Assembly: GCA_028711165.1 (NCBI GenBank)
Contig: JAQTST010000001.1
Coordinates: forward strand, 300,520 to 364,519
Source of the DNA: Candidatus Nanoarchaeia archaeon
GTDB lineage: Archaea > Nanobdellota > Nanobdellia > Pacearchaeales > GW2011-AR1
Reading direction: 5' to 3'
DNA length: 64,000 nucleotides
The position numbers and the translations under genes are program-made. Position 1 is the stretch's first letter, and each line of letters begins with the position of its first letter. The notes beneath the pieces were generated by a model, which made no database searches, was not told the origin of the DNA, and saw only the letters and a list, made by a program, of their open reading frames with translations. Shown here one piece after another: positions 4,792 to 18,683 of the stretch.

Positions 4792-4934
4792 AATAGCGCT
4801 CACTTCGTTCGCGGATTTTCTGCACTCAGAACCAAACTCCGTTAAGGTTCTTCGATAATGTAAATTGTTATCGTAGGTAAATTCTAAAAATTCATTACAA
4901 TAATCTTTAAAAATAAAAAATTAATGATGGCATT

Positions 4935-5234
4935 ATGAAAACTTTGAATGATATTATCTTATTCCCACAATCGTTAGAATTGTTAAATGCTTGTTTAGAT
5001 AATTCTTATGGAATTTCTCAAGGGAACGATATTAGATATTCTTGTGATAAAAACAAATCTTTTAGCCAGAATGAGCATGAGTTTAAGAAGATATTAAAAA
5101 AAGCAGGATTCGATGGGGTTATTAGATATTCAATTGAGAAAAAGTTAAATCTACCCGAATATGTGTTTAAAGGAATTCCTATAAATAAGAGAGAATATGT
5201 TGTGATTAAACTCCCAAAAGTTAAAGTTAAATAA
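4935..5234 (+). CDS. Hypothetical protein, paralog of 4465..4791
   Basis: Tandem paralog; conserved blocks as listed for 4465..4791. Confidence 0.55.
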   Translation: MKTLNDIILFPQSLELLNACLDNSYGISQGNDIRYSCDKNKSFSQNEHEFKKILKKAGFDGVIRYSIEKKLNLPEYVFKGIPINKREYVVIKLPKVKVK

Positions 5235-5235
5235 A

Positions 5236-5835
5236 TCAAATCTTCTCAGCAACAAAAATAATCATCTGTTTTGGGTCTTCTTTGAAAATAATTTTGAATC
5301 CTGCTTTTTCAAATAACTTGTAAATCTCTTTGTCGTCGTATAAATAATAATAACGCGCTCCTTTGTCGCGCCAATTTACAAATCGCTCTTTGCTCTTTGC
5401 ATTTCTGAATTTGTTTGACTGTTTGTTCCAGACTCCGACTTCGACTTGAGCGCCTTTTTTCAAAACGCGGAATAATTCTTTTACTGCTTTTTCCCTGTTC
5501 TTTTCCCCCTCGATGCAATGCAATGAGGAAATAAAAATTGCAGCGTCGAAAAAGTTGTCTTCAAAAGGCAGTTTTGTCAAATCAGCGACGACAAATTCAG
5601 CAGAAATCTTTTTCTTCTTTGCTTTTTCTTTCGCGAGTTCAATCATTTTTTCAGAGAAATCGACAAGATACATTTTTCCCTTTGAAATTTTCATTAAGTG
5701 CCTTCCTGCTCCGCTTCCCAAATCTAAAATATTTCCTTTTTTTCCTTTTAGAAATTCCTCGACGTGATGGGCGGGGTGGATTTTAAATTCGCTCCATTCT
5801 TCTGCGATGTTGTTCCAGACTTGGTGCTGATTCAT
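5236..5835 (-). CDS. Class I SAM-dependent methyltransferase
   Basis: Motif I ILDLGSGAGRH, an acidic post-I residue (LVDFS), and a typical ~200 aa Methyltransf_11-like layout. Confidence 0.8.
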   Translation of the reverse strand: MNQHQVWNNIAEEWSEFKIHPAHHVEEFLKGKKGNILDLGSGAGRHLMKISKGKMYLVDFSEKMIELAKEKAKKKKISAEFVVADLTKLPFEDNFFDAAIFISSLHCIEGEKNREKAVKELFRVLKKGAQVEVGVWNKQSNKFRNAKSKERFVNWRDKGARYYYLYDDKEIYKLFEKAGFKIIFKEDPKQMIIFVAEKI

Positions 5836-5906
5836 GGGGGAATAGAGAAATGGGGAATTTTAAAATTATTGATAAGTCTTATTCAACTGCAATTTCGCTC
5901 GTCTAT

Positions 5907-5922
5907 CCCCCCCCCCCCCCCC
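5907..5922. repeat. Homopolymeric C16 tract (G16 on the minus strand)
   Basis: Counted directly: 16 consecutive C. It is intergenic, about 42-57 nt upstream of the methyltransferase TATA-like box and 65 nt downstream of the HEPN-like gene stop. Confidence 0.95.
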
Positions 5923-5986
5923 AAGCCGAAAAAATTGTACTTCCGAAATTTCTTAAATTATCACCTCTTTTTTAGAAAATAAATCC

Positions 5987-6466
5987 TTAGACTTCTGTCT
6001 CTGACTCTAAAATTGACACAGCACCTTCCATTATTATTCCAACTAAATAGTCATAAATTCCCCCGTGTTCTTTGTGTAAATTCTCCCAATTCAATTCTTT
6101 AGTCTTTGGGATATATTTCTTTTCAGTTCCCTTAAGAGCAATATTATGAGCAAAAATATTTCTTATCTTGTAAAACCTATCAACCTTATTGTCAAAATCT
6201 TTCGGGAATTTTATTTTTGGATAATCCCTTTTAATAATCTCTCTTACAATCCTCAATTTAGTAATTATCCCTGCATTTTGGAAAAAATATTTATTAAATA
6301 TTCTAATTTTTTCTTCATCGATATTTTTTTCTGACCAAAATTTTTGTTTAAATCCAAAAAATCTATCTATTATATCTTCTGCAATATTGTCTATGTAAAT
6401 TGTGTTTATAATCACATCTGCTAAAAGTTCTCTTGGAGGTTCATCTGTCATTTTATTCCCCTTCAA
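5987..6466 (-). CDS. HEPN-like domain protein (RNxxxH motif)
   Basis: The C-terminal half carries FYKIRNIFAHN, an Rx4H motif in the helical context typical of HEPN/MtlR-like proteins. It overlaps the 3' end of the upstream gene by 14 nt. Confidence 0.45.
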   Translation of the reverse strand: MKGNKMTDEPPRELLADVIINTIYIDNIAEDIIDRFFGFKQKFWSEKNIDEEKIRIFNKYFFQNAGIITKLRIVREIIKRDYPKIKFPKDFDNKVDRFYKIRNIFAHNIALKGTEKKYIPKTKELNWENLHKEHGGIYDYLVGIIMEGAVSILESETEV

Positions 6467-7745
6467 ACTTCATCAACGTGAAAACTTTTTGATTTGCCTG
6501 TTCTAATTTTTCTCTCCCCTTGAGCTCTGGAAGTTCTATCGGGAAACAGCATTCAACAATTTCCCCTTGAAGTTGTGTGATTAATTTGCAGGAAGCAAGT
6601 GCTGTTCCGCCTGTTGCAATCAGATCGTCTACGAGAAGAATCTTCTGCTTTGGAGAAATTGCATCTTTGTGAATCTCGACGCTGTCAACTCCGTATTCCA
6701 AATTATAAGGTTCTGAAATTGTTTCGGCAGGAAGTTTTCCTGGTTTTCTGATAAGAACTAATCCTGTTCCTAATCTTCCTGCAAGCATTCCAGCGAGGAC
6801 AAATCCCCGTGATTCAATTCCTGCAACAGCGTCGATTGCAAAATCTTTGTATCTGTCATAAAGCATGTCAATTAATTTTCTCAACGCATCTTTGTCTTTC
6901 AACAAAGTTGTAATATCTCTGAACATAATTCCCTGCTTGGGGAAATTTGGAATTGTCCTTATGCTCTCTTTCAATTTTCTTATCTCTTCATCTCTTGAAA
7001 AAGAATTAATTGTTTCGAGCAAAACTTTTTTCACTCTCTCGGTGTTTTCCCTCATCACCATTCTGATAACTTCCCAGCTTGCGGGCTCCTCGTCTTCTTT
7101 CCAGCAGTCATAATCCGTCGACATCGCGATAACTCCGTAAGGAACTTCTGCCTCATTCGCGAGAATTGCTTCAGGTGCAATTGACATATTAATTACATCT
7201 GCACCAAACTGCTGAAACATCTTGCTCTCTGCTTTTGTCGAGAATCTCGGCCCTTCAATTGTAACGACTGTTCCTTTCTCATGATAAGCGTGTCCTAACT
7301 TATGACAGGATTCAATTAATTTTTTTCTTAAAATATTAGAGAAAGGTTCTGGCATCGGCGTGTGAACTGGACCAAATTCAAACTGCTCGAAGAAAGTAAG
7401 TTTTCTCTGCTTTGTGAAATCAATAAACTGGTCGAGAATTACAAAATCTCCGCGCCTGATATCTTCTCTTAGCGAACCGACTGCTGTCGTCGCTATTATG
7501 TATTTGCATCCCTCATTTTTCAGTGCGAAAATATTTGCTCGGTTATTTACCTGCGTCGGTGGAATCTCGTGTTTTACTCCGTGACGGGAAATTATGAAAA
7601 CATCGACGCCATTTATTCTTCCTGTTGTTATCGGAGAAGAAGGTTTTCCGAACGGCGTGTCAACTTCTTTCTGTTTAAAGTTTTCAAGAAGCTCGGGATT
7701 TTCCAGCCCAGAACCTCCAATCACACCTATTTTCAACGCTGCCAT
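6453..7745 (-). CDS. mtnP-apt: Fusion protein: 5'-methylthioadenosine phosphorylase (N-terminal) plus adenine phosphoribosyltransferase (C-terminal)
   Basis: The N-terminal ~260 aa is MTAP/PNP-like (KIGVIGGSGL..., ISRHG, ATTAVGSL). The C-terminal ~170 aa is APRT-like (FRDITTLL, VAGIESRGF, the PRPP loop LLVDDLIATGGT). I chose the ATG at 7745 (MAALKIGVIGGSG), not the track start at 7817, because a TATA-like box lies ~28 nt upstream of it. Confidence 0.8.
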   Translation of the reverse strand: MAALKIGVIGGSGLENPELLENFKQKEVDTPFGKPSSPITTGRINGVDVFIISRHGVKHEIPPTQVNNRANIFALKNEGCKYIIATTAVGSLREDIRRGDFVILDQFIDFTKQRKLTFFEQFEFGPVHTPMPEPFSNILRKKLIESCHKLGHAYHEKGTVVTIEGPRFSTKAESKMFQQFGADVINMSIAPEAILANEAEVPYGVIAMSTDYDCWKEDEEPASWEVIRMVMRENTERVKKVLLETINSFSRDEEIRKLKESIRTIPNFPKQGIMFRDITTLLKDKDALRKLIDMLYDRYKDFAIDAVAGIESRGFVLAGMLAGRLGTGLVLIRKPGKLPAETISEPYNLEYGVDSVEIHKDAISPKQKILLVDDLIATGGTALASCKLITQLQGEIVECCFPIELPELKGREKLEQANQKVFTLMKFEGE

Positions 7746-7835
7746 TTCTAAAAATAACAAAAATAATTTAAAAGTATTATATCGATGCAAAATATATAAT
7801 GAAAAGTTTTTAAACAAGTTTTATTTAGTTAATCT

Positions 7836-8081
7836 ATGGTTGATATAGCATCATTATTGGGCGGGACGATTTTCTTCTGGATAATACTTAGTTTGATTAC
7901 TGGAGGATTATTTATCTTCTTTTTTGTATTCTGGATTTTAATGCTTGTTGATTGCATTCAGAAAAAGTTCAAAGAAGATGTCGAGAAAATTGTCTGGATT
8001 CTTGTGCTAATCTTCACAGGAGTTTTGGGAGCATTAATTTATTATTTCGTTGTGAAGAAAAAAAGCAAGAAGAGAAAATAA
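7836..8081 (+). CDS. Small membrane protein, PLD nuclease N-terminal (PLDc_N)-like
   Basis: Two TM helices with WILMLVDCI...KIVWILVLIF..LGALIYYFV, which resembles the PLDc_N pattern (recalled family). Confidence 0.6.
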   Translation: MVDIASLLGGTIFFWIILSLITGGLFIFFFVFWILMLVDCIQKKFKEDVEKIVWILVLIFTGVLGALIYYFVVKKKSKKRK

Positions 8082-8092
8082 TTCTCGTTTAA

Positions 8093-8100
8093 TTTAAATA
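8093..8100 (+). promoter_or_regulatory. TATA-like box (TTTAAATA) 29 nt upstream of the elp3 ATG
   Basis: Spacing rule shared across the window. Confidence 0.5.
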
Positions 8101-8121
8101 GGGTTTTTTTATTGTTTTCAT

Positions 8122-9477
8122 ATGTTAACTCCAAAGAAAAATGAAGTAAGAAAACCTACGAAGACGATTTCAGGAATCACGCCTGTAGCAGTTATGCTGC
8201 CGCCTCGTGCGTGCGAACATGGAACCTGTCTTTATTGTCCGTCGCTGGATGTTCCCCAAAGCTACACTCCGAAATCTCCTGTTGTTATGAGAGCAAGCGA
8301 AGTTGGATATGATTCTTACAAACAAGTTTTAGCGAGGATAAAAGCATTTGAAGTTATGAACCATCCGACGGAGAAAGTTGAATTAATAATTATGGGCGGG
8401 ACTTTTCTTGAATATCCCAAGAAATTCCAGTATGATTTTGTCAAAAAATGCTATGACGCTTTGAATGGGAAAATTTCCAAGACTTTGAATGAAGCTCAAA
8501 AATTAAACGAAAAAGCAAGGCACAGATGTGTTGCTCTCTGCGTTGAAACCCGTCCAGATGAATGCATTAAATACATTAAGCAAATGCGGGATTTTGGAGT
8601 CACAAGAGTTGAGCTTGGTGTTCAAATGCCCGACGATAAAATTTACAAAATAATAAAACGGGGACATAAAGTTAAAGATGTTGTCGACGCGACGAGAGAA
8701 TTAAAAAATGCAGGATTCAAAGTTGGTTATCATATTATGCCCGGACTTCCTGGAAGCAATCCTAAAAAAGATTTGCAATTATTCAAAAAACTTTTTTCCG
8801 ACGAGAAATTCAAGCCAGACCAGCTGAAAATTTATCCGTGCCAGGTTATCAGAGGAAGCAAACTTGAAGATGAATACTGGAAGAAAAAATACAAACCTTA
8901 CACGAAAGAGCAGACTGAAAAATTGCTGACAGAAATGATGAAAGTTGTTCCGAGATATTGCAGAGTTATGAGGGTGATGAGAGAAATTCCTCCCGATTAT
9001 TTAGTTGCTGGTACGACGAGAATTGATCTAAGAAAAGATGTTGAAGAAAAACTTCGACGGGAAAATAAGAAAATTGTTGAAATAAGATTCAGGGAAATTG
9101 GTTTTGCTGGAAAAGGAACTGATAATAATTTAAAATTAAAAATCACAAAATACAAAGCTTCTGGTAGTGATGAATATTTTTTGGAAATTGTAAATGACGA
9201 TGATATTTTATTTGGATTGCTGAGATTGAGAATTGTTGGAACAAGAGCGTTAGTAAGAGAACTTCATGTTTATGGGCAGAGTTTGAAACTCGGAGATGAA
9301 GGAAAAGTAAGTCAGCACATAGGGTTAGGAAAATGGCTGATGAAAGAAGCAGAGAAAATTGCAGAAAAAAATAAATGCAAAAAGATTTTAGTTATCTCAG
9401 GAATTGGCGTCAGAGAATATTACAGAAAACTTGGCTACGACTTAGAAGACAGTTATATGATTAAAATAATCCGATAG
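8122..9477 (+). CDS. elp3: Elp3-type radical SAM/GNAT tRNA uridine(34) acetyltransferase
   Basis: Radical SAM Cys cluster (CEHGTCLYCP), an Elp3 core, and a C-terminal GNAT region (HIGLGKWLMKEAEKIA). Confidence 0.85.
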   Translation: MLTPKKNEVRKPTKTISGITPVAVMLPPRACEHGTCLYCPSLDVPQSYTPKSPVVMRASEVGYDSYKQVLARIKAFEVMNHPTEKVELIIMGGTFLEYPKKFQYDFVKKCYDALNGKISKTLNEAQKLNEKARHRCVALCVETRPDECIKYIKQMRDFGVTRVELGVQMPDDKIYKIIKRGHKVKDVVDATRELKNAGFKVGYHIMPGLPGSNPKKDLQLFKKLFSDEKFKPDQLKIYPCQVIRGSKLEDEYWKKKYKPYTKEQTEKLLTEMMKVVPRYCRVMRVMREIPPDYLVAGTTRIDLRKDVEEKLRRENKKIVEIRFREIGFAGKGTDNNLKLKITKYKASGSDEYFLEIVNDDDILFGLLRLRIVGTRALVRELHVYGQSLKLGDEGKVSQHIGLGKWLMKEAEKIAEKNKCKKILVISGIGVREYYRKLGYDLEDSYMIKIIR

Positions 9478-9507
9478 TCTTATAAAATATATTTTATTAT
9501 ATCTATT

Positions 9508-9852
9508 ATGAAAAAGAATGGTGATTCTAAAAAAGATGATGACAAAATTTTATTTGCATGGCTGGCGACTTTCTTGTCTCTGGTTGGTTTTGTAATTGCA
9601 ATAATTGCGAGAAGAAAAGATAAGTATGTAATGTATTATGCAAAACAAAGCATTGTTATTTTTATTGCTGGTGCTATCGGTGGAGTTATTGGAAATGTTC
9701 TGAATATAATTCCTCTCATGGGAACACTGGTTAATGCTGCTATTGGAGTATTAATGGTAATTGTCTGGGTAGTCTCGTGGGTTTATGCTCTGAGCGGAAG
9801 AGAAAAAAAGATTTCGATTATTTCTGACTGGGCTAAGAAAATTAGGTTATAA
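9508..9852 (+). CDS. Membrane protein, DUF4870-like
   Basis: 3-4 TM helices with a YAKQS motif; family recalled from memory. Confidence 0.5.
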   Translation: MKKNGDSKKDDDKILFAWLATFLSLVGFVIAIIARRKDKYVMYYAKQSIVIFIAGAIGGVIGNVLNIIPLMGTLVNAAIGVLMVIVWVVSWVYALSGREKKISIISDWAKKIRL

Positions 9853-9853
9853 A

Positions 9854-9992
9854 TGCCCCGTCCGGGATTCGAACCCGGGTTTCAGCCTTTCTTTATTCAT
9901 TTTACTTGAAGTCAAAGTTCTACGAACTTTTCATTCAAACTCGCTACGCTCATTTGAAAGGGCTGTGTCCTTGGCCTCTAGACTAACGGGGC
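9854..9992 (-). tRNA. tRNA-Glu(UUC) with ~65-nt intron at the anticodon loop (37/38)
   Basis: Hand-folded from the reverse complement: acceptor GCCCCGT/ACGGGGC, D stem GTCT/GGAC, anticodon stem CAGCC/GGCTG, loop CTTTCAA, T arm CCGGG-TTCGAAT-CCCGG, discriminator A. The intron sits between the loop and the 3' stem half. Confidence 0.85.
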
Positions 9993-10034
9993 GTAAATAA
10001 AAAAGAGAAAAATAGTTTTTAAAGCTTTATTTGT

Positions 10035-10055
10035 AATTTGAGTCCTGCCTGATAG
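10035..10055 (+). repeat. Degenerate copy of the intergenic repeat core (AATTTGaGTCctGCCTGATAg)
   Basis: 18 of 21 matches to the core found at 11211, 16727, 16785 and 19561. It lies directly upstream of the sigma gene's TATA-like box. Confidence 0.5.
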
Positions 10056-10056
10056 T

Positions 10057-10064
10057 TTTTTAAA
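10057..10064 (+). promoter_or_regulatory. TATA-like box (TTTTTAAA) 27-29 nt upstream of ATG 10086 of the sigma-like gene
   Basis: Archaeal-type promoter geometry in front of a bacterial-type gene. Confidence 0.4.
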
Positions 10065-10076
10065 TCCTATTTTTAT

Positions 10077-10910
10077 GTGTTTTCTATGATAAAAAATAAT
10101 AACCATGAAATACTTTCAATTTATCTTAAAGAGATAGATCGATATAAATTATTAGACAGAGACGAAGAAAAGAGTTATGCAATCAGAGCAAAAAACGGCG
10201 ATAAAGATGCAAGGAAAAAATTAATTGAAAGTAATCTCCGTTTTGTTGTCAGTGTTGCAAAAAAATTTCAGGGGAATGGTTTGCCTTTGGAGGATTTAAT
10301 TTCAGAAGGAAATATTGGACTTATGGATTCTATTAAAAAATATGAACCTGGAAAAGGATATCATTTTGTAACTTATGCTGTCTGGTGGATAAGACAAAAA
10401 ATTCTGAAAGCAATTATAGAACAACCGAAAACCGTGAGAGTTCCTGTTAACAAAAGAGTTTCAATAAAAAAAATAAATAGGACTTATGATGCTCTTGTAA
10501 ATGCTCATAATAAAACACCGACGATGGAAGAAATTGCTGAAGCAGTTGGAATTCCTTACGAGCAGTTCAGAGAGATTGAAGAATTAGACCAAATTAGTTC
10601 TTTAGATGCTTATGAAAAAGAGCCTCCTCTTTCCAGTTTAAACGGCTGTGATTATAAATCTCCCGACGAAGAGGCTACAGATAATGTTCTTGGAGAAGAA
10701 ATTAAATCTGCTTTTGAACATGCTCATTTAAGCGATAAAGAAAAAATAATTTTAGAACAGAGATTTGGACTTAATGGGAAAGGCGAACATGCTCTTGCAG
10801 AGATTGGCTTGAAATTTAATTTAACCAAAGAGAGAATAAGACAAATTGAGAAGAAGGCAATAGACAGATTGAAAGATGATTCTTATATGAATAAATTAGT
10901 TTCTAACTGA
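10077..10910 (+). CDS. Bacterial-type sigma-70 family factor (regions 2, 3 and 4 present)
   Basis: Region 2: LIESNLRFVVSVAKKF...EDLISEGNIGLMDSIKKYEPGKGYHFVTYAVWWIRQKI. A region 3-like segment is present. Region 4.2 HTH: LAEIGLKFNLTKERIRQIEKKAIDRLK. The track start is a GTG at 10077; the ATG at 10086 is the more likely start. Confidence 0.85.
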   Translation: MFSMIKNNNHEILSIYLKEIDRYKLLDRDEEKSYAIRAKNGDKDARKKLIESNLRFVVSVAKKFQGNGLPLEDLISEGNIGLMDSIKKYEPGKGYHFVTYAVWWIRQKILKAIIEQPKTVRVPVNKRVSIKKINRTYDALVNAHNKTPTMEEIAEAVGIPYEQFREIEELDQISSLDAYEKEPPLSSLNGCDYKSPDEEATDNVLGEEIKSAFEHAHLSDKEKIILEQRFGLNGKGEHALAEIGLKFNLTKERIRQIEKKAIDRLKDDSYMNKLVSN

Positions 10911-10956
10911 TTTAATAAGAAATTTTAAATATGCTAATTCAATGATAAATTGATAC

Positions 10957-10970
10957 GAGCCTATAGCTCA
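10957..10970 (+). repeat. 14-nt duplicate of the 5' end of tRNA-Ile (GAGCCTATAGCTCA)
   Basis: Identical to 11048..11061. The sequence after it does not complete a D arm. Confidence 0.8.
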
Positions 10971-11047
10971 CCGGGTTTCTTTAGAAAAGAAACTACGCTG
11001 GTAGAAATGCTTAAAATGCATTCATTCGCTATAGACTTTACAAACAG

Positions 11048-11170
11048 GAGCCTATAGCTCAGCCAGGTTAGAGCACCGCTCTTATAAGAGCTTGTTCCGT
11101 TAGGGACATGTTTTCAAGGTTAACAAACTAAGAAAGGCGGGGGTCCACAGTTCAAATCTGTGTAGGCTCA
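11048..11170 (+). tRNA. tRNA-Ile(UAU) with ~48-nt intron at the anticodon loop
   Basis: Hand-folded: acceptor GAGCCTA/TAGGCTC, D stem GCTC/GAGC, anticodon stem CCGCT/GGCGG (one U-G pair), loop CTTATAA (U33, anticodon TAT, A37), T arm CACAG-TTCAAAT-CTGTG, discriminator A. Confidence 0.8.
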
Positions 11171-11184
11171 TAAAGAAAACCCCT

Positions 11185-11232
11185 GTTTTTCTTTATCAAT
11201 CTATCCTCTGAATTTGGGTCACGCCTGATAAG
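11185..11232 (+). repeat. Intergenic repeat copy (GTTTTTCTTTATCAA...AATTTGGGTCACGCCTGATAAG)
   Basis: About 90% identical over ~48 nt to 19536..19583. It ends 5 nt before the ychF-like TATA box. Confidence 0.85.
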
Positions 11233-11266
11233 AATAATTTAAATAATCTTTTTTTGAATTAATGAT

Positions 11267-12454
11267 ATGTTAATTGGACTTGTGGGAAAACCTTCGGTTG
11301 GGAAAAGCACGTTTTTCAAAGCAGCGACTCTCGCAGAAGTTGAGATTGCTTCTTATCCTTTCACGACGATAAAACCTAATCACGGAATTGGTTACGTCAA
11401 AGTTGACTGCATCGACAAAGAGTTTAAGACACAGTGCAATCCTAATCACGGATTTTGTCTGAATCACAAAAGATTTGTCCCTGTTGATTTGATGGATGTT
11501 GCAGGACTTGTGCCAGGAGCCAGCGAGGGAAAAGGGCTTGGAAATCAGTTTCTTGACGATTTGAGACAGGCAGATGTTTTTATCCAAATTGTAGACTGCT
11601 CAGGAACAACCGACGAGACAGGAAAACCGACAGAAAATTATGATGTGACAAAAGATGTTATTTTCCTTGAGGATGAACTTGACAAATGGTTTCTTGGAAT
11701 CCTGATGAAAGTCTGGAAAAGTTTTGCGAGAAAAATAGAAATGGACGGCGATGATTTTGCAAAGGCAGTTGTTAATCAGTTTTCAGGTTTGAAAGTCAAG
11801 GAAGAGCATGTCAAGAGAGTTTTGTCCAAACTTAATTTTTCTGCTCAGCCAAGCCGATGGAATGACAAACAGCTTTTGGAATTTGCTTCTGAACTTAGAA
11901 AACAAAGCAAGCCGATGATTATTGCTGCTAACAAAATTGATACTCCCGACGGAAAAATGAATTATGAAAAACTGAAAAAGAAATTCCCTGAAAAAATAAT
12001 TATTCCCTGCTCTGCTGATTCTGAACTTGCTTTGAGAGAAGCTGCGAAGGCTGGATTAATTAATTACATTCCAGGAGAAAGAAGTTTTGACATAAAAGGA
12101 AATCTCAATGAGAAACAGAGAAATGCCGTCGATAAAATTAAAAAAAATGTTCTTGACGAATATGAAACAGGAACAGGAATTCAGGAAATTTTGAATTATG
12201 CAGTTTTTGAATTGCTGAAATATCTTGCAATTTTTCCTGCAGGAGCAACCAAGCTCGCTGACAGCAAGGGAAATATTTTGCCCGATTGTTTTTTGCTTCC
12301 TCCGAATTCAACGGCGTTAGATTTTGCTTTTTTCCTTCACACTGATTTTGGGAAAAATTTTAACAGAGGAATCGACGCCAGAACCAAAAAAATTCTCGGA
12401 AGAGATTACAAACTGAAAAACAGAGATGCGCTGGAAATTGTGACCGGGAGATAA
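11267..12454 (+). CDS. Obg/YchF-family GTPase/ATPase (Ygr210-like) with C-terminal TGS domain
   Basis: P-loop GKPSVGKST, G3 DVAGLV, NKID, and a TGS-like C-terminus. TTTAAAT box 29 nt upstream. Confidence 0.8.
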   Translation: MLIGLVGKPSVGKSTFFKAATLAEVEIASYPFTTIKPNHGIGYVKVDCIDKEFKTQCNPNHGFCLNHKRFVPVDLMDVAGLVPGASEGKGLGNQFLDDLRQADVFIQIVDCSGTTDETGKPTENYDVTKDVIFLEDELDKWFLGILMKVWKSFARKIEMDGDDFAKAVVNQFSGLKVKEEHVKRVLSKLNFSAQPSRWNDKQLLEFASELRKQSKPMIIAANKIDTPDGKMNYEKLKKKFPEKIIIPCSADSELALREAAKAGLINYIPGERSFDIKGNLNEKQRNAVDKIKKNVLDEYETGTGIQEILNYAVFELLKYLAIFPAGATKLADSKGNILPDCFLLPPNSTALDFAFFLHTDFGKNFNRGIDARTKKILGRDYKLKNRDALEIVTGR

Positions 12455-12769
12455 TTATCTCTGCTCGCTAACTCTAAATTTCTTTTCTATCTCATTCTCT
12501 ATCTTTGCCATTGCTTTGTGAATTGCTCTTGCGAAATCATAATCCCACGAACTTGAGTTTAACATTTTTCCCGAAAAAATCACTTCTGCATTAAGGCTGT
12601 ATTTTCTGTTTTTACCGTCCTTATCATATTCTTTAATGTGCATTTTTAACCGAAAAGGATTTTTTAACAATCGCTGGATTTTTTCGTAATATTCTTCAAG
12701 GAGCTTATCGGCTATTTTTTTATCTTTTTCTGTCAGAATGTTTGTATTTACAATTTCTACATTTTCCAT
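12455..12769 (-). CDS. Possible ribosome hibernation factor-like protein (YfiA/HPF fold)
   Basis: 104 aa with a beta-alpha-beta-beta-beta-alpha-like pattern and WDYDFARAIHKAMAKIENEIEKK, which resembles the D.Y.AID...KLE.QL.K end of S30AE proteins. Judged by eye only. Confidence 0.3.
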   Translation of the reverse strand: MENVEIVNTNILTEKDKKIADKLLEEYYEKIQRLLKNPFRLKMHIKEYDKDGKNRKYSLNAEVIFSGKMLNSSSWDYDFARAIHKAMAKIENEIEKKFRVSEQR

Positions 12770-13317
12770 TTTTTAATAAAATTTATAAGTTCTTCAAACT
12801 TTTAAAATTTGTGCAGAACAAAAAGAGGATTGTGTTGAAAAAGGGAAGGTATGTGACGACGAAAAAAGGAGATTTTGTCCTCGGACTTTCCAGTAAAATA
12901 ACTAATTATCTAAAACCTTATTGCAGACGAATTCTGGTTGTAGGAAGCATAAGGCGAAAAGAAAAAAATCCCGTCGATATTGATATTGTTTTGATTCCAA
13001 AGGACAGAATAAAACTTGAAAATTTTCTGAGAAAAAAAGGACGATTCATTCAGGGCGGAGAAAAAAAATCGAGATGGAGAATTGAAGGAGTTAATGTTGA
13101 ATTGTATTACACGAATTCCGATGAATGGGGCGCTGCACTGCTTGCTTATTCCAGTGAGTTTGGAGCGGGAATTGGGCTGAGAGTTGTTGCGAAGAAAAAA
13201 GGTTTTAAGTTAAGTCAGCACGGGCTTTTCCGAGGAGCAAAGAGAGTTGCCGGGAAAACTGAAAAGGAAATTTACCATGCTCTTGGACGTCCTTACAAAA
13301 AACCTGAGAACCGATAA
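12742..13317 (+). CDS. Minimal family X (Pol beta-like) nucleotidyltransferase, palm plus thumb only
   Basis: VVGSIRRKEKNPVDIDIVLIP is the GS-motif plus DxD catalytic pair. FKLSQHGLF...TEKEIYHALGRPYKKPENR is a PolX thumb/C-terminal signature. No 8-kDa or fingers domain is present. The true start is probably downstream of 12742, which overlaps the convergent gene. Confidence 0.7.
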   Translation: MYLQFLHFPFFNKIYKFFKLLKFVQNKKRIVLKKGRYVTTKKGDFVLGLSSKITNYLKPYCRRILVVGSIRRKEKNPVDIDIVLIPKDRIKLENFLRKKGRFIQGGEKKSRWRIEGVNVELYYTNSDEWGAALLAYSSEFGAGIGLRVVAKKKGFKLSQHGLFRGAKRVAGKTEKEIYHALGRPYKKPENR

Positions 13318-13319
13318 AC

Positions 13320-13327
13320 TATAAAAA
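13320..13327 (+). promoter_or_regulatory. TATA box (TATAAAAA) 29 nt upstream of pilin-leader paralog A
   Basis: The block TATAAAAACCTGTTC..TTAATAATG is conserved with 19604 and 21037. Confidence 0.6.
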
Positions 13328-13348
13328 CCTGTTCTTATTATCTTAATA

Positions 13349-15418
13349 ATGAATAATAAAAGAGGTTTATCAACGATCATTATGACTTTGATAATAATTC
13401 TCGTCTCACTAGTTGCAGTAGGAATTTTCTGGGTTGTTGTTCAAAATTTGATTAAAGGAAGTTCAGAAAATATTGGATTTGGAAGTTTAACTTTAAACGC
13501 AGAAATTAAAGGAGTTCAGATTGATAATTCGTCGAATAATGTAAGTCTAATTGTCAAGCGAAATACAGGAGAAGGAGACATGACTGGAATCAAATTTATT
13601 TTTTACAGCGACGATAAAAACGAAATCATCGAGCAGGATATTCAACTTGAAGAACTTGAACAAAAAAGTTTCCACTTTCATTTGGCGATGAATGTTTCAC
13701 TTTTAACAAAAATTTCTATTTATCCAATTTTCCTTTCTGGCGGAAAAGAAAACGTTGGAAATATTGCAGATAGCTATGATGTCAAAACAGGGACGAGAAT
13801 TGTGATTCCACCGTCGGGATGTACGCCAACAACAAATCCATGCGGAAGCAGAATCTGCGGAAATATTGCAAACGGAACCTGCGGAAGCATCAGCTGCGGA
13901 ACCTGTTCAGTAGGAACCTGCAACGCAACAGGACAATGTGCAACAAGCTGTGTACCGACGACATGTGAAGCATTAGGACACAATTGCGGAAGCGGTTATG
14001 CTAATGGGACATGTGCAGGAACACTAACCTGTGGAAGTTATGGGGGAGGCTGTCAGTCAGGATACACTTGCGTTGGTGGAACTTGTGTCGAGGAAACCGG
14101 ATACACTTGCGGAAATAATATCGTCGAGCCTGGAGAAGCATGCGATGGGACAAATCTTTCTGGTTACACTTGTGCAACAGTTGCAGCAGGATTTGCTTCG
14201 GGAAGTTTAAGCTGCAATTCAAACTGCAGAAGTTATGTCACAACTTCATGCGTTGCAGGAGACATAATAAACGCTGCTTCATGCTCTCAGGCAAATGTTC
14301 AGTCAGCAATTAATTCTGCCAGCGACGGAGATATTGTTCAAGTTCCTGCAGGAAGCTGTACGTGGAGCAGTACTGTAACTATTAATTCAAAAAATATAAT
14401 ATTGCGCGGGGCGGGAATTGACAAGACAAATATTACTGACGGAACAGGCACGGGCTGGAATGAAAATTTAATCAATGTAAATTGTGTAGAAGGCAAACCT
14501 TTCCGTGTCACTGGATTTAGTTTTCCCTGCGTTGTTGGAGACGGTACTTATAAAATTTATGTCGCTGGAACCTGCAAAAACTGGCGTGTAGACCATTCTA
14601 AATTTGAAGCTACTGGTGCTCCGCCAAAAGCCTCTGCAGTCATACCTGATGGTTATACCTACGGAGTTATAGATCACTGTATATTTAATGATGCAAGAAA
14701 CTGGATGGATGGGGATGGCGGTAATTCGTGGACGAGACCGCTTAATTTAGGAACCTCGGAAGCAGTATATATAGAAGATAATTATTATTATCAAACTGTC
14801 TTTGGAAATGTAGTCGACTCTAGCGACGGAGCATCTTATGTATTCCGTTATAATAGAGTTAATGGAACTGCTGACGGAGGATACATAGAAGCTCATAGTG
14901 GCTGTCCAAACGGACAGAGAGCGACGTTTAAATATGAAATTTATAATAATACTCTTAATCTAAACGATGTATGGGCTCTTGCTGGATTGAGGGGAGGAAC
15001 GGGCGTTGTTTTTGATAATATTTTTACTGGTGTTTCTGTAGGCGTTCCACATATTTCAGTTGACGATGAAAGAACATGCGCCCCTTATAATGGCTGTATT
15101 GGACTTTGGTCTGGGTGGAATTCTACCTGTAATGGAACTTCTCCTTACGATGGCAATACTCCGGGCATGTTTGGTTATGCCTGCAGAGACCAGATTGGAC
15201 GTTCGACAGATTCGGGTATTTTAACACCGCAGTCACTTGAACCATTGTATGAATGGGACAATAAATATAATGGAAATGATGTAGACATTGTGATTAATCC
15301 TGTGGCGTGCGCCCTGACATCTGTTCATATTCAGGAAAACAGAGATTATTACAATGACATGGAGAGACCAAATTATGTTCCTTATGCTTATCCTCATCCT
15401 ATTGCTTTAATTAATTAG
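13349..15418 (+). CDS. Surface protein: class III (archaeal type IV pilin-like) signal peptide, conserved ~150-aa module, Cys-rich repeats, right-handed beta-helix-like domain (paralog A)
   Basis: N-terminus MNNKRG/LSTIIMTLIIILVSLVAVGIFWVVV. Cys-rich CG..CG repeats including CGNNIVEPGEACDG. Then SCSQANVQSAINSASDGDIVQVPAGSCTW followed by a beta-helix-like region. The C-terminus YPHPIALIN is shared with paralog C. Confidence 0.75.
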   Translation: MNNKRGLSTIIMTLIIILVSLVAVGIFWVVVQNLIKGSSENIGFGSLTLNAEIKGVQIDNSSNNVSLIVKRNTGEGDMTGIKFIFYSDDKNEIIEQDIQLEELEQKSFHFHLAMNVSLLTKISIYPIFLSGGKENVGNIADSYDVKTGTRIVIPPSGCTPTTNPCGSRICGNIANGTCGSISCGTCSVGTCNATGQCATSCVPTTCEALGHNCGSGYANGTCAGTLTCGSYGGGCQSGYTCVGGTCVEETGYTCGNNIVEPGEACDGTNLSGYTCATVAAGFASGSLSCNSNCRSYVTTSCVAGDIINAASCSQANVQSAINSASDGDIVQVPAGSCTWSSTVTINSKNIILRGAGIDKTNITDGTGTGWNENLINVNCVEGKPFRVTGFSFPCVVGDGTYKIYVAGTCKNWRVDHSKFEATGAPPKASAVIPDGYTYGVIDHCIFNDARNWMDGDGGNSWTRPLNLGTSEAVYIEDNYYYQTVFGNVVDSSDGASYVFRYNRVNGTADGGYIEAHSGCPNGQRATFKYEIYNNTLNLNDVWALAGLRGGTGVVFDNIFTGVSVGVPHISVDDERTCAPYNGCIGLWSGWNSTCNGTSPYDGNTPGMFGYACRDQIGRSTDSGILTPQSLEPLYEWDNKYNGNDVDIVINPVACALTSVHIQENRDYYNDMERPNYVPYAYPHPIALIN

Positions 15419-15456
15419 ACAGATAATATTTTAAATAATTCTTCTTATGTAAAATT

Positions 15457-15714
15457 ATGATAATAAAAGTTAAAGTGAAACCAAATTCTTCAAAGCAGAG
15501 CGTCGAGAGTTTTGGTGATAACAGATATTTAGTTCATGTCAAATCAGAACCAGAAAATGACAAGGCAAATATTGAAATGATAAAATTGCTCTCGAAAGAG
15601 CTTGGTGTTCCTGAAAAAAGTTTTCACATAAAATTCGGGAGAACCGGACATGAGAAAATGATAATGACAGAACTTCGTTCAGCACAAATAAAAATTCAAG
15701 GAGAATTTTCATAA
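15457..15714 (+). CDS. DUF167 (YggU-like) protein whose last 17 codons lie in a repeat element
   Basis: IKVKVKPNSSKQSVE...DKANIEMIKLLSKELGV...GRTGHEKMI fits the YggU pattern. The tail IMTELRSAQIKIQGEFS is encoded by repeat 15661..15717. Confidence 0.65.
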   Translation: MIIKVKVKPNSSKQSVESFGDNRYLVHVKSEPENDKANIEMIKLLSKELGVPEKSFHIKFGRTGHEKMIMTELRSAQIKIQGEFS

Positions 15715-15717
15715 TGA
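15661..15717 (+). repeat. Leader repeat copy A (ATAATGACAGAAC...CAGCACAAATAAAAATTCAAGGAGAATTTTCATAATGA)
   Basis: Matches 42288..42300 plus 42350..42386 almost exactly (one indel). It supplies the SD (GGAG) and ATG of the next gene. Confidence 0.85.
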
Positions 15718-16115
15718 AATACGAATTTGCCGACGATTTGCAGAAACTTGCCGAAGAAATTTCTCTGATGTTTTTTCCGCATGTTGATTTGTCGAATGTA
15801 AAATGCTACAGAAGCTACGGAACTTCGTCGAGAGGAACAATAGCGAGATGCCACGCTCTGAACAAAATAATGCAGAAAGCAATCGGAATAAAAGCAGTTT
15901 ATGTCCTTGAATTTCTTGTTGAAAGATTTGAAAAGCTCGACGACGAAGAGAAAATCAAAGTTGTAATTCACGAACTGATGCACATTCCAAAAAGTTTTGG
16001 CGGAGGATTTATACACCATGATGTTGTTACAAACAGGAATGTAAATAGATGCTATGCCGAATACAAAAAGAAAAAAGAGGAAAAAGTTGAGAAGCAAAAA
16101 ATTAATTATTGGTGA
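15714..16115 (+). CDS. Predicted zinc metallopeptidase (HExxH; SprT/COG4900-like)
   Basis: HELMHIP motif in a ~130-aa protein of the small archaeal 'predicted metallopeptidase' type. Its start overlaps the upstream stop (TAATG). Confidence 0.6.
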   Translation: MKYEFADDLQKLAEEISLMFFPHVDLSNVKCYRSYGTSSRGTIARCHALNKIMQKAIGIKAVYVLEFLVERFEKLDDEEKIKVVIHELMHIPKSFGGGFIHHDVVTNRNVNRCYAEYKKKKEEKVEKQKINYW

Positions 16116-16431: not shown

Positions 16432-16492
16432 GACGAAACATTTAAATATATATTCGACGATATATTTATTAAAATCTGAAAGGAGGTGAAAA

Positions 16493-16648: not shown

Positions 16649-16689
16649 TCATATCAAATTTTTATTTTTTTATTTTAATTAATTTTCAA

Positions 16690-16808: not shown

Positions 16809-16836
16809 CAAATTCTAATTTTTTTATTTACAATAA

Positions 16837-16844
16837 TTTATAAG
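16837..16844 (+). promoter_or_regulatory. TATA-like box (TTTATAAG) 29 nt upstream of kae1
   Basis: Spacing rule. Confidence 0.45.
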
Positions 16845-18682: not shown

Positions 18683-18683
18683 A

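Follow-up and report, generated by a model that had tools for sequence, protein, structure and literature searches.

Our reading, held with a confidence somewhat above even, is that the 64,000-nucleotide stretch of DNA analyzed here (the window) contains a bacterial-origin sigma-70 gene that resides in a Pacearchaeota-type chromosome (GTDB Nanoarchaeia, DPANN) and whose product is probably a sigma-derived DNA-binding transcription factor. Residue conservation is what points to this function. In textbooks, bacterial transcription is told apart from its archaeal and eukaryotic counterparts by sigma factors on one side and TBP, TFB, and TFE on the other. An intact sigma factor under selection, accompanied by an archaeal polymerase alone, raises the question of what role such a protein can have without its cognate core. 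It could be a plain DNA-binding regulator, a factor on the archaeal RNA polymerase (RNAP), or a tool aimed at a bacterial partner. Table 1 lists the features of the locus.

Table 1. Features at and around the sigma-70-family gene, in window coordinates.
Feature	Position	Strand	Basis or remark
tRNA-Glu(UUC), 66-68 nt anticodon-loop intron; left border of slot	9854-9992	-	Rfam RF00005, 51.2 bits; ARAGORN -i
AT-rich stretch with TATA-like box (reverse complement CTTTAAAAAC)	10003..10032	-	box 25-32 nt upstream of tRNA-Glu 5' end
Degenerate copy AATTTGAGTCCTGCCTGATAGT of local intergenic repeat AATTTGGGTCACGCCTGATAAG	10035-10056	+	17/22 positions; directly upstream of the sigma TATA box
TATA-like box TTTAAAT, candidate archaeal promoter of a putatively leaderless sigma mRNA	10059-10065	+	starts 27 nt before ATG 10086
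Sigma-70-family gene, 274 aa	10086..10910	+	Pfam, NCBIfam, PDB, AlphaFold2; GTG 10077 is an alternative start
Sigma region 2 (Pfam Sigma70_r2): core-binding 2.1/2.2 helices, -10 recognition and melting helix	10221..10415	+	
Region 3.2 "sigma finger" linker	10596..10649	+	alignment with bacterial family, AlphaFold2
Sigma region 4 with 4.2 helix-turn-helix LTKERIRQIEKKAIDRL	10722..10874	+	Pfam, alignment
Exact 14-nt copy of tRNA-Ile 5' end	10957..10970 (= 11048-11061)	+	91 nt upstream of the real gene
tRNA-Ile(UAU), 48-49 nt intron; right border of slot	11048-11170	+	Rfam, 52.9 bits; ARAGORN -i
Full intergenic repeat copy (hairpin plus AATTTGGGTCACGCCTGATAAG), family D20	11170..11238	+	between tRNA-Ile and the GTPase promoter
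YGR210/YchF-type Obg-like GTPase, archaeal/eukaryotic housekeeping gene	11267..12454	+	Pfam, synteny maps

A preliminary description of this DNA had recognized a complete sigma-70 factor with regions 2 and 3 and a region 4.2 helix-turn-helix, and it proposed a check against the region profiles. Pfam Sigma70_r1_2, r2, r3, and r4 (PF00140, PF04542, PF04539, and PF04545) match the open reading frame in canonical order with 38.9, 72.2, 28.8, and 53.6 bits, respectively, all above the curated cut-offs. The architecture is group-2/RpoS-like, running from region 1.2 to 4.2 without region 1.1 or the non-conserved insert. The protein is identical to NCBI MDD5012379.1, annotated "RpoD/SigA [Candidatus Nanoarchaeia archaeon]", and its best PDB sequence matches are SigA, RpoS, and RpoD chains. 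An AlphaFold2 model (pLDDT 81) is all-helical with sigma-2, sigma-3, and sigma-4 domains, and the PDB structures that match it best are sigma-S and sigma-A chains. Among NCBIfam models, RpoS and then RpoD score highest, both below their equivalog cut-offs (TIGR02394, NF004207, and NF006666 give 236.9 versus 378.7, 225.4 versus 394, and 219.9 versus 572 bits). RpoS and RpoD were therefore rejected as names in favor of "sigma-70 family, group-2-like". Escherichia coli and Pseudomonas RpoS and other group-2 sigmas share the 1.2-2-3-4 architecture, and sigma-S holoenzyme chains match structurally, whereas the window protein scores far below the RpoS threshold, lacks a stationary-phase regulatory context, and has no bacterial RNAP beside it in the window. 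Of the 102 positions at which the bacterial family is at least 90% conserved, the window sigma keeps 78. Bona fide bacterial sigmas from outside the family keep about as many (Treponema, 75; a gammaproteobacterium, 74; Bacillus subtilis SigA, 69), which we count toward the identity and completeness of the window sigma.

The other genes of the contig are archaeal. They encode a threonyl-tRNA synthetase (ThrRS) with an archaea-specific editing domain, an ELP3-like radical-SAM protein, the YGR210-type GTPase, Kae1, L7Ae, S28e, L24e, S6e, aIF2-gamma, and aIF5B. Together with the intron-containing tRNA genes, these bear out the archaeal character that had been assigned to the window. A scan of about 50 window open reading frames for RNAP subunits and anti-sigma families returned none, in agreement with the earlier statement that the window has no bacterial RNAP core or anti-sigma gene. 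Our RNAP scan covers 64 kb of the genome, so that a bacterial core polymerase is lacking is taken from the literature: archaeal TBP/TFB/TFE are the sole such factors that Castelle et al. (PMC8204110) report for these genomes.

An assembly or binning artefact, in which a bacterial fragment was wrongly joined between two conserved tRNA genes, is extremely improbable and, in our judgment, close to refuted. Logan unitigs that carry the sigma gene do end at 9963 and 11028, in or beside the tRNA genes, as repeat-like nodes of the metagenome graph would. However, the sigma unitig holds 30 nt of the archaeal-type tRNA-Glu 5' end as well as the tRNA-Ile 5' copy. An independent 447-kb MAG contig from another assembly (L001) has the same junctions, with 99.95% identity over 20.8 kb, and both this contig and the unitigs are identical to the window across them. 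The protein is also recorded on three long contigs. The codon usage, GC content, and promoter geometry of the gene fit the host, and divergent relatives in unrelated metagenomes show this arrangement too. For Woesearchaeota sigma-70, PMC8204110 likewise excludes mis-binning. The L001 contig, the codon usage, the TATA box at -27, and the sigma-tRNA-Ile pairing in relatives thus uphold the view that the gene is domesticated rather than chimeric.

The expression signals are of the host type. TATA-like hexamers cluster at -30 to -26 from the ATG among 58 window genes (for example, 20 genes at -29). This positional peak and the box at -27 favor ATG 10086 over GTG 10077, as does the 274-aa NCBI protein. 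The open reading frame given in the preliminary description (10077..10910) therefore stands as that of the sigma factor, with its start moved downstream, and the TATA-like box that it placed 27-29 nt before ATG 10086 is confirmed. The sigma genes of the related loci L108, L112, and L187 have the same TATA geometry, and the box in L004 starts at about -31. The archaeal transcription machinery would express the gene from such a promoter. The degenerate intergenic repeat upstream of it, also noted earlier, is confirmed, with 0-1 matches of 17/22 to AATTTGGGTCACGCCTGATAAG per whole window in 20 shuffles. Full copies of this species-specific repeat, each on the + strand and upstream of a gene, are located at 11211, 16788, and 19562. 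On the other strand, 10003..10032 is the putative tRNA-Glu promoter; upstream of the orthologous tRNA-Glu, the window and L112 have an identical 30-nt string, aaagagaaaaatagtttttaaagctttatt. The synonymous codon choice of the sigma gene fits the host (score of -0.90 versus a window mean of -0.99 +/- 0.05). Its GC3 is the lowest in the window (0.215 versus 0.33 +/- 0.055).

Residues were numbered as in E. coli sigma-70 by a HMMER alignment of query residues 40-267 with E. coli residues 373-603. Region 2 of the window copy has D403, E407, and N409, along with the -10 and melting residues Y425, Y430, W433, W434, R436, and Q437. The -35-contacting residues E585, R586, R588, and Q589 are kept, the one change being R584 to K, and region 4 keeps 23 of its 26 family-conserved positions. 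With nearly all core-, -10-, and -35-contact residues intact, this copy is particularly canonical. It also has T440 to L and H455 to N, changes common to the spirochaete family. Regions 3.0-3.2 are the worst-kept part. The 3.2 finger is 6 residues shorter than that of the bacterial family, has SSLNG in place of the acidic DF(I)ED, and keeps two of seven family-conserved positions, so an intact finger with its acidic motif is missing. Residues 172-188 in this region have pLDDT < 50 and are predicted to be disordered. Across six archaeal copies, N383, L384, V387, K392, I405, G408, N409, G411, and L412 are invariant, as are Y430, W433, W434, I435, and I439. E407 is kept in three of the six and is Y, W, or I in the others. 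In place of R436/Q437, L108 has K/E and L112 has E/H, and region 4.2 also differs between close relatives. The alignments thus indicate that the sigma-2 core and Y430/W433/W434 are kept in all archaeal copies and that the sigma finger is decaying.

In the mechanism that we favor, the protein would be a sigma-derived, sequence-specific DNA-binding factor. Region 4.2 would read a -35-like duplex site. Region 2, through its invariant Y430/W433/W434 patch, would hold on to AT-rich DNA in a melted or easily melted state. The decaying parts would be those that fit only a bacterial polymerase channel, namely, the 3.2 finger and, in half of the archaeal copies, E407. The factor might be docked on the clamp of the archaeal RNAP, or it might work on its own, for instance as a competitor of TBP/TFB for promoters. 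Two features are awkward here. The window copy keeps nearly all of the beta' clamp-helix-binding residues (D403, E407, and N409), which a stand-alone regulator would not need, and the differences between close relatives at R436/Q437 and in region 4.2 fit poorly with a conserved regulon.

Docking on the archaeal RNAP can also be taken as the main function, a rival that we consider unlikely. Region 2 would bind the clamp coiled-coil, which is universally conserved and is where TFE-alpha and Spt5 dock, and the sigma would act in initiation and melting, as an alternative or auxiliary factor, in a lineage without TFE-beta. Retention of the region 2.2 core-binding residues and of the melting residues Y430/W433/W434 in the window copy, with the aromatics invariant in all six archaeal copies, is consistent with such a role. 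So is the degradation of the 3.2 finger, the most affected element, which in an archaeal initiation complex would clash with or duplicate the TFB B-reader. The -35 and -10 positions would correspond approximately to BRE/TATA and to the initially melted region, which also speaks for docking. DPANN archaea lack TFE-beta, according to a review (PMC7289017). However, a contact between sigma and archaeal RNAP is purely hypothetical, and half of the archaeal copies have replaced E407. That residue is important for beta' binding in E. coli, as judged from the mutational literature, and we know of no obvious archaeal equivalent of the beta-flap tip helix that holds region 4, which likewise counts against docking. 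A decidedly unlikely elaboration is hybrid cross-domain initiation: on the RNAP clamp coiled-coil of TFE-beta-less Pacearchaeota, the W433/W434/Y430 wedge and the 4.2 helix-turn-helix would open a subset of promoters, and the fast-changing specificity residues would retune this subset between close relatives.

A metagenome scan anchored on the GTPase recovered 80 related loci. The survey of related archaeal genomes suggested earlier was carried out, and homologous sigma genes were found in other DPANN genomes: L004 (Pacearchaeota), L024 and L026 (Woesearchaeota), L112 (an NCBI Pacearchaeota protein), L108, and L187. Each of the five close-subgroup members sampled (the window, L004, L108, L112, and L187) has the sigma gene next to an orthologous tRNA-Ile, and alignment A3 shows that the orthology of tRNA-Ile(UAU) includes the intron. 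The order is sigma, tRNA-Ile, ELP3 (80% identity), and PNP-PRT (80%) in L004; tRNA-Glu, sigma, tRNA-Ile, and GTPase (83-84%) in L108 and L112; and sigma and tRNA-Ile in L187. Archaeal genes (GTPase, ELP3, PNP-PRT) are thus near the sigma in L004, L108, and L112, and in L024 the sigma gene lies immediately upstream of the GTPase. The window gene occupies a variable slot, bounded by tRNA-Glu and tRNA-Ile, within a conserved housekeeping backbone, whose flanking parts are conserved in L139, L141, L151, and L169. In more distant relatives, the slot is empty or holds unrelated small membrane-protein genes: the two tRNA genes are 59 nt apart in L147 and 82 nt apart in L169, and PspC, DUF5684-like, or DUF4870 membrane proteins fill the slot in L131, L136, L141, L151, L159, L162, and L185. 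Relatives whose GTPase is 65-74% identical have no sigma gene in the slot. Such a tRNA-bounded slot illustrates the capture and turnover of bacterial genes in DPANN genomes.

Both bordering tRNA genes carry introns, as the preliminary description had stated. In the Rfam alignments, one insertion per tRNA (49 and 68 nt) follows the anticodon, at or near the canonical 37/38 position of archaeal tRNA introns, and the cloverleaf is otherwise complete. ARAGORN with introns calls tRNA-Glu(ttc) i(39,66) at the left border, where the pre-tRNA folds with z = -3.4. A tRNA-Leu at 11088-11170, called by ARAGORN with default settings, is a miscall; ARAGORN with introns and Rfam give tRNA-Ile(UAU) at 11048-11170.

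The sigma gene would have arrived either on a tRNA-targeting integrative element, as its cargo, or through recombination between tRNA genes and other DNA. The preliminary description had considered the 14-nt duplicate a possible scar of tRNA-targeted integration, which is plausible and partly supported. The copy, which is exact, is possibly a recombination or integration scar; its chance expectation at up to 2 mismatches is about 0.18. Partial tRNA-end copies are a recurrent feature of this locus, present in the window, in L112, and in L108, where a 74-nt unit is triplicated. In L004, a tyrosine-recombinase (Phage_integrase) gene lies 0.9 kb from the sigma gene. Against integration, the 14-nt copy lies between the sigma gene and tRNA-Ile and so does not bracket the former, the window has no direct repeats that do, and no integrase gene occurs in its 64 kb. 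The two marks of cargo of a tRNA-targeting element or prophage, an integrase and bracketing repeats, are thus missing here. Integrative elements are known to capture genes at archaeal tRNA genes in Sulfolobus and Thermococcales. The window resembles these cases in having a foreign gene that adjoins tRNA genes and partial direct copies of tRNA termini, and it differs in that an integrase, whether partitioned or intact, and direct repeats around the gene are both missing. The orientation of the tRNA genes flips between loci. The tandem triplication in L108 could equally stem from slippage.

The sigma gene evolves quickly. Its dN is 0.53-0.59, whereas the GTPase and ELP3 give 0.115-0.148 when the same genomes are paired, so the sigma rate is 4-5 times higher. 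With dS near saturation in most pairs, one usable dN/dS value was obtained (0.33 at dS 0.69 for L112 versus L187), and this pair indicates that the sigma is under purifying selection. It is a fast-evolving gene in a slot that varies among more distant relatives, rather than a stable housekeeping gene.

These rates bear on another improbable reading, that the sigma gene travels with a mobile element or provirus and does little or nothing for the archaeal cell, as transient cargo between tRNA genes that is heading for loss. The variable slot and the absence of sigma from it in relatives with 65-74% GTPase identity would fit, as would the partial tRNA copies, the L004 integrase, the fast evolution, and the low GC3. 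In L022, moreover, the sigma gene lies beside a phage-type DNA methyltransferase; rpoS-like genes occur in DPANN viruses (PMC12647753); and at least 525 IMG/VR contigs encode relatives, although no viral contig exceeds 42% identity. However, intact full-length open reading frames with all four regions persist at no fewer than 7 archaeal loci whose sigmas are 29-65% identical, and dN/dS is 0.33 rather than 1. The promoter and codon usage are those of the host, and the sigma-tRNA-Ile unit is kept in five of five close-subgroup members though all around it is rearranged.

The phylogeny proposed earlier to find the donor was also built. The nearest bacterial relatives are Spirochaetota sigma factors of about 280-300 aa (45-52% identity over the full length), and their sequences suggest a spirochaete donor. 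The neighbor-joining tree is weakly supported (bootstrap values of 46-66) and does not resolve the archaeal sigmas as one clade; because of these values, a single gain followed by fast evolution and repeated cassette replacement are not distinguished. The spirochaete proteins, annotated "RpoD/SigA", come from Sphaerochaetaceae, Spirochaetaceae, Oceanispirochaeta, and Spirochaeta cellobiosiphila. They have the same length as the window sigma, likewise lack region 1.1, and share with it the signatures NLRFVV.VAKKYQ, DLISEGNIGL, HF(I/V)(S/T)YAVWWIRQ.ILKA, RLP.N, and FNLTKERIRQIEKKA. In contrast to the window protein, with its 6-residue deletion and lost acidic motif, they have a cognate core polymerase and an intact 3.2 finger (SL.TPV...LGDFIED).

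This kinship raises the purely speculative and very unlikely idea of an inter-organism effector: a sigma made by an episymbiont would redirect transcription in a bacterial host or partner, such as a spirochaete, by acting on the bacterial-type RNAP there. Judged by its residues, the window copy seems fully able to work with a bacterial core polymerase and -10/-35 promoters, and the rapid diversification of specificity residues among close relatives resembles that of conflict or host-interaction genes. DPANN archaea are inferred to be symbionts (PMC8204110). Nevertheless, no N-terminal secretion signal is evident on reading the sigma sequence, and no secretion system was found adjoining the gene. 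No Pacearchaeota are known with a bacterial host, and the loss of E407 in half of the archaeal copies also argues against this idea.

Sigma-70 factors in DPANN archaea are already published (PMC8204110, 2021; PMC12647753, 2025). Castelle et al. (2021, Front Microbiol), in the text accessible to us, report that sigma-70 (fam00359) is prevalent in Woesearchaeota and that anti-sigma factors were not found. Like the gene described here, those genes are complete, lie among archaeal markers without an anti-sigma, and are not products of mis-binning. That text covers presence and prevalence, and the present genome is Nanoarchaeia/Pacearchaeota-like rather than woesearchaeotal. Relative to it, the tRNA-Glu/tRNA-Ile placement, the 4-5-fold rate acceleration, and the pattern of residue constraint appear to be additions. 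Also new are the variable slot, the recurrent tRNA-end copies, and the spirochaete nearest relatives. The rpoS-like auxiliary genes of DPANN viruses and prophages (Nat Commun 2025, PMC12647753) share the sigma-70 family, the DPANN setting, and an association with mobile DNA, which fits the tRNA slot, the partial tRNA copies, and the L004 integrase; the window gene differs in that it stands alone between two tRNAs amid housekeeping genes, with no viral or integrase genes in the window. The canonical window copy and its divergent relatives at the orthologous tRNA-Ile locus offer a practical starting point for biochemistry.

Finally, PADLOC gave no further defense-gene matches among the neighbors of the sigma gene. 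The sigma itself was rejected as MzaA of the MZA anti-phage system, with profile positions 412-664 of 683 matched and a score well short of the 800-bit cut-off. MzaA has about 700 aa, including N-terminal domains, and its C-terminal third, the sigma-70 module, is the only part that aligns with the window sigma (PADLOC, 147.5 bits; NCBIfam, 217 bits).

The sigma gene lying between the tRNA-Glu and tRNA-Ile genes is a real, intact gene of bacterial derivation that resides in an archaeal genome and carries archaeal-type expression signals. Listed as ORF 10077..10910 with a GTG start (277 aa), it had been proposed in the preliminary description to encode a complete sigma-70 factor, and all four Pfam regions indeed score above their curated cut-offs (r1.2, 38.9 bits; r2, 72.2; r3, 28.8; r4, 53.6). 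The best NCBIfam models are RpoS (236.9 bits) and RpoD, both well under their equivalog cut-offs. The protein aligns over its whole length with SigA, RpoS and RpoD holoenzyme chains among PDB sequences (E = 5e-53 and weaker). Its AlphaFold2 model (mean pLDDT 81) is all-helical; three domains are confidently modeled, and the linker at residues 172-188 is disordered. The best structural matches in the PDB are 9a58, a SigA-RpoC integrative model, and sigma-S and sigma-A chains of initiation complexes. Because region 1.1 and the non-conserved insert are absent, the architecture is that of a group-2 (RpoS-like) factor. Outside its own species, the best database matches share just 45-52% identity and, where named, are Spirochaetota sigmas of ~280-300 aa. 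This spirochaete family also dominates the matches in a database of 5.8 billion proteins, which contributes only three further archaeal-type proteins (P0121, P0122 and P0239).

A chimeric assembly, which the preliminary description had already doubted, is all but ruled out as the source of the gene by identical junctions in a second MAG, by linking unitigs and by host-like codon choice. The 447-kb contig of GCA_028714745.1 matches window positions 86..20910 at 99.95% identity, and both sigma-gene junctions are identical. Logan unitigs from two runs provide an exact cover of 9963..11028; the gene is therefore physically joined to the tRNA-Ile 5' copy on one side and to 30 nt of archaeal tRNA-Glu on the other. 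At NCBI the identical protein has three accessions, each annotated as RpoD/SigA of Candidatus Nanoarchaeia archaeon, on three contigs, the longest of which (623 kb) carries MDD5357873.1 or MDD5588792.1. Window GC content is flat (0.31-0.40). In synonymous codon choice the sigma gene agrees with the rest of the window a little better than the average gene does, and its GC3 of 0.215 is the lowest in the window (0.33 +/- 0.055).

The surroundings are archaeal. Both flanking tRNA genes, described earlier as intron-containing, were recovered by Rfam and by ARAGORN run with introns (aragorn -i), which supersedes a default ARAGORN run that missed both and called a spurious tRNA-Leu. The window encodes ribosomal proteins L7Ae, S28e, L24e, S6e and uS10, the translation-related aIF2-gamma, aIF5B and a diphthamide-synthesis fragment, and three aminoacyl-tRNA synthetases: ThrRS with the archaea-specific editing domain, TyrRS or TrpRS, and SerRS. 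Also present are an ELP3-like radical-SAM protein, a YGR210-type GTPase, Kae1, ThyX, GyrA/GyrB and a PC4-like protein. Among the ~50 ORFs scanned, none encodes an RNA polymerase subunit or belongs to an anti-sigma family, in line with the earlier remark that the window has neither a bacterial polymerase core gene nor an anti-sigma gene. As a separate observation, the tRNA-Ile with a UAU anticodon apparently decodes AUA, and both gene and intron are conserved across Pacearchaeota-like loci. The usual archaeal AUA decoder is a CAU tRNA modified with agmatidine.

Features of the window and of two related loci (L024, Woesearchaeota; L108, close relative)
Feature	Position	Strand	Remarks
PNP-PRT fusion ORF	6453-7817	-	454 aa; PNP_UDP_1 phosphorylase and phosphoribosyltransferase domains
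tRNA-Glu(UUC)	9854-9992	-	Intron adjoining anticodon
Degenerate repeat copy	10035-10056	+	Directly upstream of sigma TATA box; 17/22 vs species-specific repeat AATTTGGGTCACGCCTGATAAG
Sigma TATA-like box TTTAAAT	10059-10065		27 nt before ATG 10086
Sigma gene (MDD5012379.1)	10086-10910	+	274 aa
Copy of tRNA-Ile 5' end	10957-10970		14 nt
tRNA-Ile(UAU)	11048-11170	+	Intron adjoining anticodon
Intergenic repeat, ~69 nt	11170-11238, 16687-16755, 16775-16809, 19521-19589	+
YGR210/YchF-type GTPase	11267-12454	+	Anchor for related loci
Cysteine-rich paralogues	13349-15418, 19633-21012, 21066-23444, 35652-39335		Laminin_G_3 (Pfam) in 19633-21012 and 35652-39335
Putative phage metallopeptidase domain protein	15714-16115	+
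Giant ORF	23514-33290	+	3258 aa; tandem 267-nt (89-aa) repeats at 29.2-30.2 kb and 31.4-32.0 kb; ~840-920 nt repeats at 26.4-29.1 kb
Lysine-rich low-complexity ORF	34585-35610	+	341 aa
GyrB, GyrA, FAD_binding_4 protein (bacterial-type)	39417-44914 and 51972-53285		FAD_binding_4 protein 437 aa
PC4/p15-domain protein	56090-56392	-	100 aa; E = 8e-12
L024 sigma homologue	2369-3859		496 aa
L108 tandem unit	5685-5862		74 nt x3, between tRNA and GTPase

The expression signals of the sigma gene were compared with those of its neighbors. Upstream of the ATG of 58 window genes, TATA-like hexamers are nearly absent from -70 to -31 and pile up at -30, -29, -28, -27 and -26 (7, 20, 19, 13 and 5 genes, respectively), which is the signature of leaderless archaeal transcripts. 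From the position of the sigma box, ATG 10086 rather than GTG 10077 is the likely start, in agreement with the NCBI annotation. The sigma genes of the close relatives L108, L112 and L187 have equal box spacing, and the box of the Pacearchaeota locus L004 begins at about -31. Both the box and the degenerate repeat copy noted previously stand up to closer inspection: 17/22 matches arise 0-1 times per shuffle in 20 shuffles. The ~69-nt repeat is made up of a hairpin (AAAGAAAAC..GTTTTTCTTT) and, after it, TCCTTTAAATTTGGGTCACGCCTGATAAG. Every copy lies on the + strand just 5' of a TATA box, with full copies upstream of the GTPase, Kae1 and surface-protein genes and the degenerate one upstream of sigma. 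Among 186 fetched loci it is found only in the same-species locus L001; candidate roles are a binding site for a regulator and a miniature mobile element. As a possible target of sigma itself, the local repeat GGGTCACGCCTGATAAG was rejected, as its hexamer spacing is unfit for a -35/-10 promoter and the repeat is species-specific. A scan of 20 kb for sigma-70-type promoters returned 76 sites, mostly intragenic, versus 56 +/- 7 expected; none stands out upstream of any gene.

Related loci place the gene in a recombinogenic, tRNA-bounded slot. A scan for archaeal homologues, using one genome per GTDB species, returned sigma genes in L004 (48% identity), in the Woesearchaeota loci L024 and L026, and in L022, from an "uncultured archaeon," beside a phage-type methyltransferase. 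L004 is syntenic, with the sigma gene, the orthologous intron-containing tRNA-Ile(UAU), ELP3 (80% identity to that of the window) and PNP-PRT (80%). The L024 sigma gene lies directly 5' of the same GTPase. Its product comprises a complete sigma module and a 220-aa C-terminal extension, in which two more region-4-like helix-turn-helix stretches (LGLTKRSL..., LGLKRRSL...) give a faint Sigma70_r4_2 match. Retrieval anchored on the GTPase gave 80 metagenomic loci (GTPase identity 65-85%), onto which sigma, tRNAs and window genes were mapped. L108 and L112 (GTPase 84% and 83%) match the window in carrying tRNA-Glu, sigma, tRNA-Ile and GTPase; in L187, found via a 65%-identical relative of L112, tRNA-Ile comes after sigma. 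More distant relatives (GTPase 65-74%) still have the backbone of MTase, PNP-PRT, ELP3, tRNA-Glu, tRNA-Ile, GTPase, Kae1 and L7Ae. The interval between their tRNAs is 59 nt in L147, 82 nt in L169 and 201 nt in L149, and elsewhere holds PspC, DUF5684-like or DUF4870 membrane proteins and a 48-aa basic protein. The sigma site is therefore a variable slot within a conserved housekeeping region. The sigma-tRNA-Ile pair itself is kept in the window, L004, L108, L112 and L187 despite rearranged surroundings and flipped tRNA orientation. As a test of vertical descent, the non-coding flanks of sigma in the window, L108, L112 and L004 were searched for conservation; what they share is confined to the TATA box and the putative tRNA-Glu promoter.

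Possible traces of recombination recur at these tRNA genes. Read earlier as a possible integration scar, the 14-nt stretch repeating the tRNA-Ile 5' end is an exact match and unlikely to occur by chance. The L108 tandem unit combines the first 26 nt of tRNA-Ile with 48 nt from upstream of it. L112 carries two such copies: one, of the first 15 nt of tRNA-Glu, lies 48 nt upstream, and the other, of 13 nt from the tRNA-Ile 3' end, lies at a distance of 113 nt. In L004, a gene for a tyrosine recombinase is situated 0.9 kb from sigma. These tRNA-end copies and the recombinase point to recurrent recombination or integration. The 14-nt copy does not bracket the sigma gene, and no direct repeats bracket the ORF; a 12-nt near-repeat (10082, 10938) is chance background, with 14 such families per 1.5 kb. 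The signs are thus compatible with arrival by tRNA integration, short of proof. That the sigma gene is simply mobile-element baggage is a minority reading, which these traces would favor. No viral donor was identified: IMG/VR phage sigmas are many, and none exceeds 42% identity to any archaeal copy. The putative phage metallopeptidase domain protein is syntenic 3' of the GTPase in most related loci (62-87% identity) and so belongs to the lineage's core genes rather than to prophage cargo.

The sigma gene evolves quickly. Between the window and L108, the GTPase shares 84% amino acid identity (dN 0.115) and sigma 40-42% (dN 0.585); between the window and L004, ELP3 shares 80% (dN 0.148) and sigma 46-48% (dN 0.532). 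The rate of change of sigma is thus 4-5 times that of its neighbors. The only pair with unsaturated dS, L112 versus L187, gives dN/dS = 0.33 at dS 0.69, indicating purifying selection that is weaker than on core genes. A value of 0.98 for L024 versus L188 was discarded as an artifact of a divergent contig end, the loci being 99.97% identical across 3 kb. No archaeal sigma scores as high against another archaeal sigma as against the spirochaete family, and in a neighbor-joining tree of 43 sigmas the nodes joining different archaeal loci have bootstrap values of 22-66. A single gain followed by acceleration fits this pattern, and repeated replacement of the slot content fits it equally well.

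Residues were numbered by HMMER alignment to E. coli sigma-70 (in region 2, window residue i = E. coli i + 333). The window sigma keeps the core-binding residues D403, E407 and N409, the -10 recognition and melting residues Y425, F427, T429, Y430, W433, W434, R436 and Q437, and, for -35 recognition, E585, R586, R588 and Q589, with R584 replaced by K. The changes Q406S, T440L and H455N are common to the spirochaete family and are therefore inherited from it. Of 102 positions conserved in at least 90% of that family, 78 are kept: 14/15 in region 1.2, 35/42 in region 2, 4/12 in regions 3.0-3.1, 2/7 in region 3.2 and 23/26 in region 4. In the window copy, the region 3.2 finger is shortened by a deletion of 6 residues, and its acidic motif is gone. 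Across the six archaeal copies, 18 of the 42 region 2 positions are kept in all, including N383, L384, G408, N409, Y430, W433 and W434, whereas region 4 has none, with the caveat that the L024 alignment there is imperfect. E407 is kept in only three of the six, and L108 and L112 differ at R436/Q437 and in the 4.2 recognition helix.

The universal retention of a folded sigma-2 domain with its aromatic melting patch argues against mere junk and suggests more than a plain helix-turn-helix repressor. Finger decay and the loss of E407 in half of the copies argue against continued service to a bacterial core polymerase. That the protein is an effector aimed at the polymerase of a bacterial partner is a minority reading, which the core-binding residues of the window copy would favor. 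The protein more probably acts as a sigma-derived DNA-binding transcription factor, and it may do so alone or on the archaeal RNAP clamp. Sigma factors in DPANN archaea were described before this window: Castelle et al. 2021 (PMC8204110) call sigma-70 genes (fam00359) "particularly prevalent in Woesearchaeota," exclude mis-binning, report anti-sigma factors as absent and leave the mechanism open. Counts for fam00359 were not found in the supplements of that paper. A DPANN prophage carries one of the two rpoS-like genes reported in a 2025 study of DPANN viruses (PMC12647753), and our literature search found no paper on the function of archaeal sigma-70 genes. The window sigma is valuable for the question of mechanism that it raises and for the set of related loci compiled here.

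Several other features of the window deserve mention. The PNP-PRT fusion recurs in L004 (425 aa), whereas the sister MAG L001 is called with a 193-aa PRT gene only; L001 and the window differ by two indels over the aligned 20.8 kb, and a frameshift in one assembly is a possible explanation. Alongside its bacterial sigma the genome encodes a transcription cofactor fold of eukaryote type, the PC4/p15 transcriptional-coactivator (single-stranded DNA-binding) domain. Broad import of bacterial genes has been described for DPANN, and GyrB, GyrA and the FAD_binding_4 protein, which is possibly MurB-like, are consistent with it. The giant ORF probably encodes a surface or adhesin protein, and homologous fragments lie 5' of the GTPase in several close relatives. 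The cysteine-rich paralogues share DNA blocks of 60-93% identity that include upstream regions and N-termini (families D3-D5, D8, D9, D13 and D14), suggesting that surface-protein genes were recently duplicated or underwent gene conversion. The region that holds the lysine-rich ORF is A-rich (AT skew 0.35) and has repeats with a 12-nt period.
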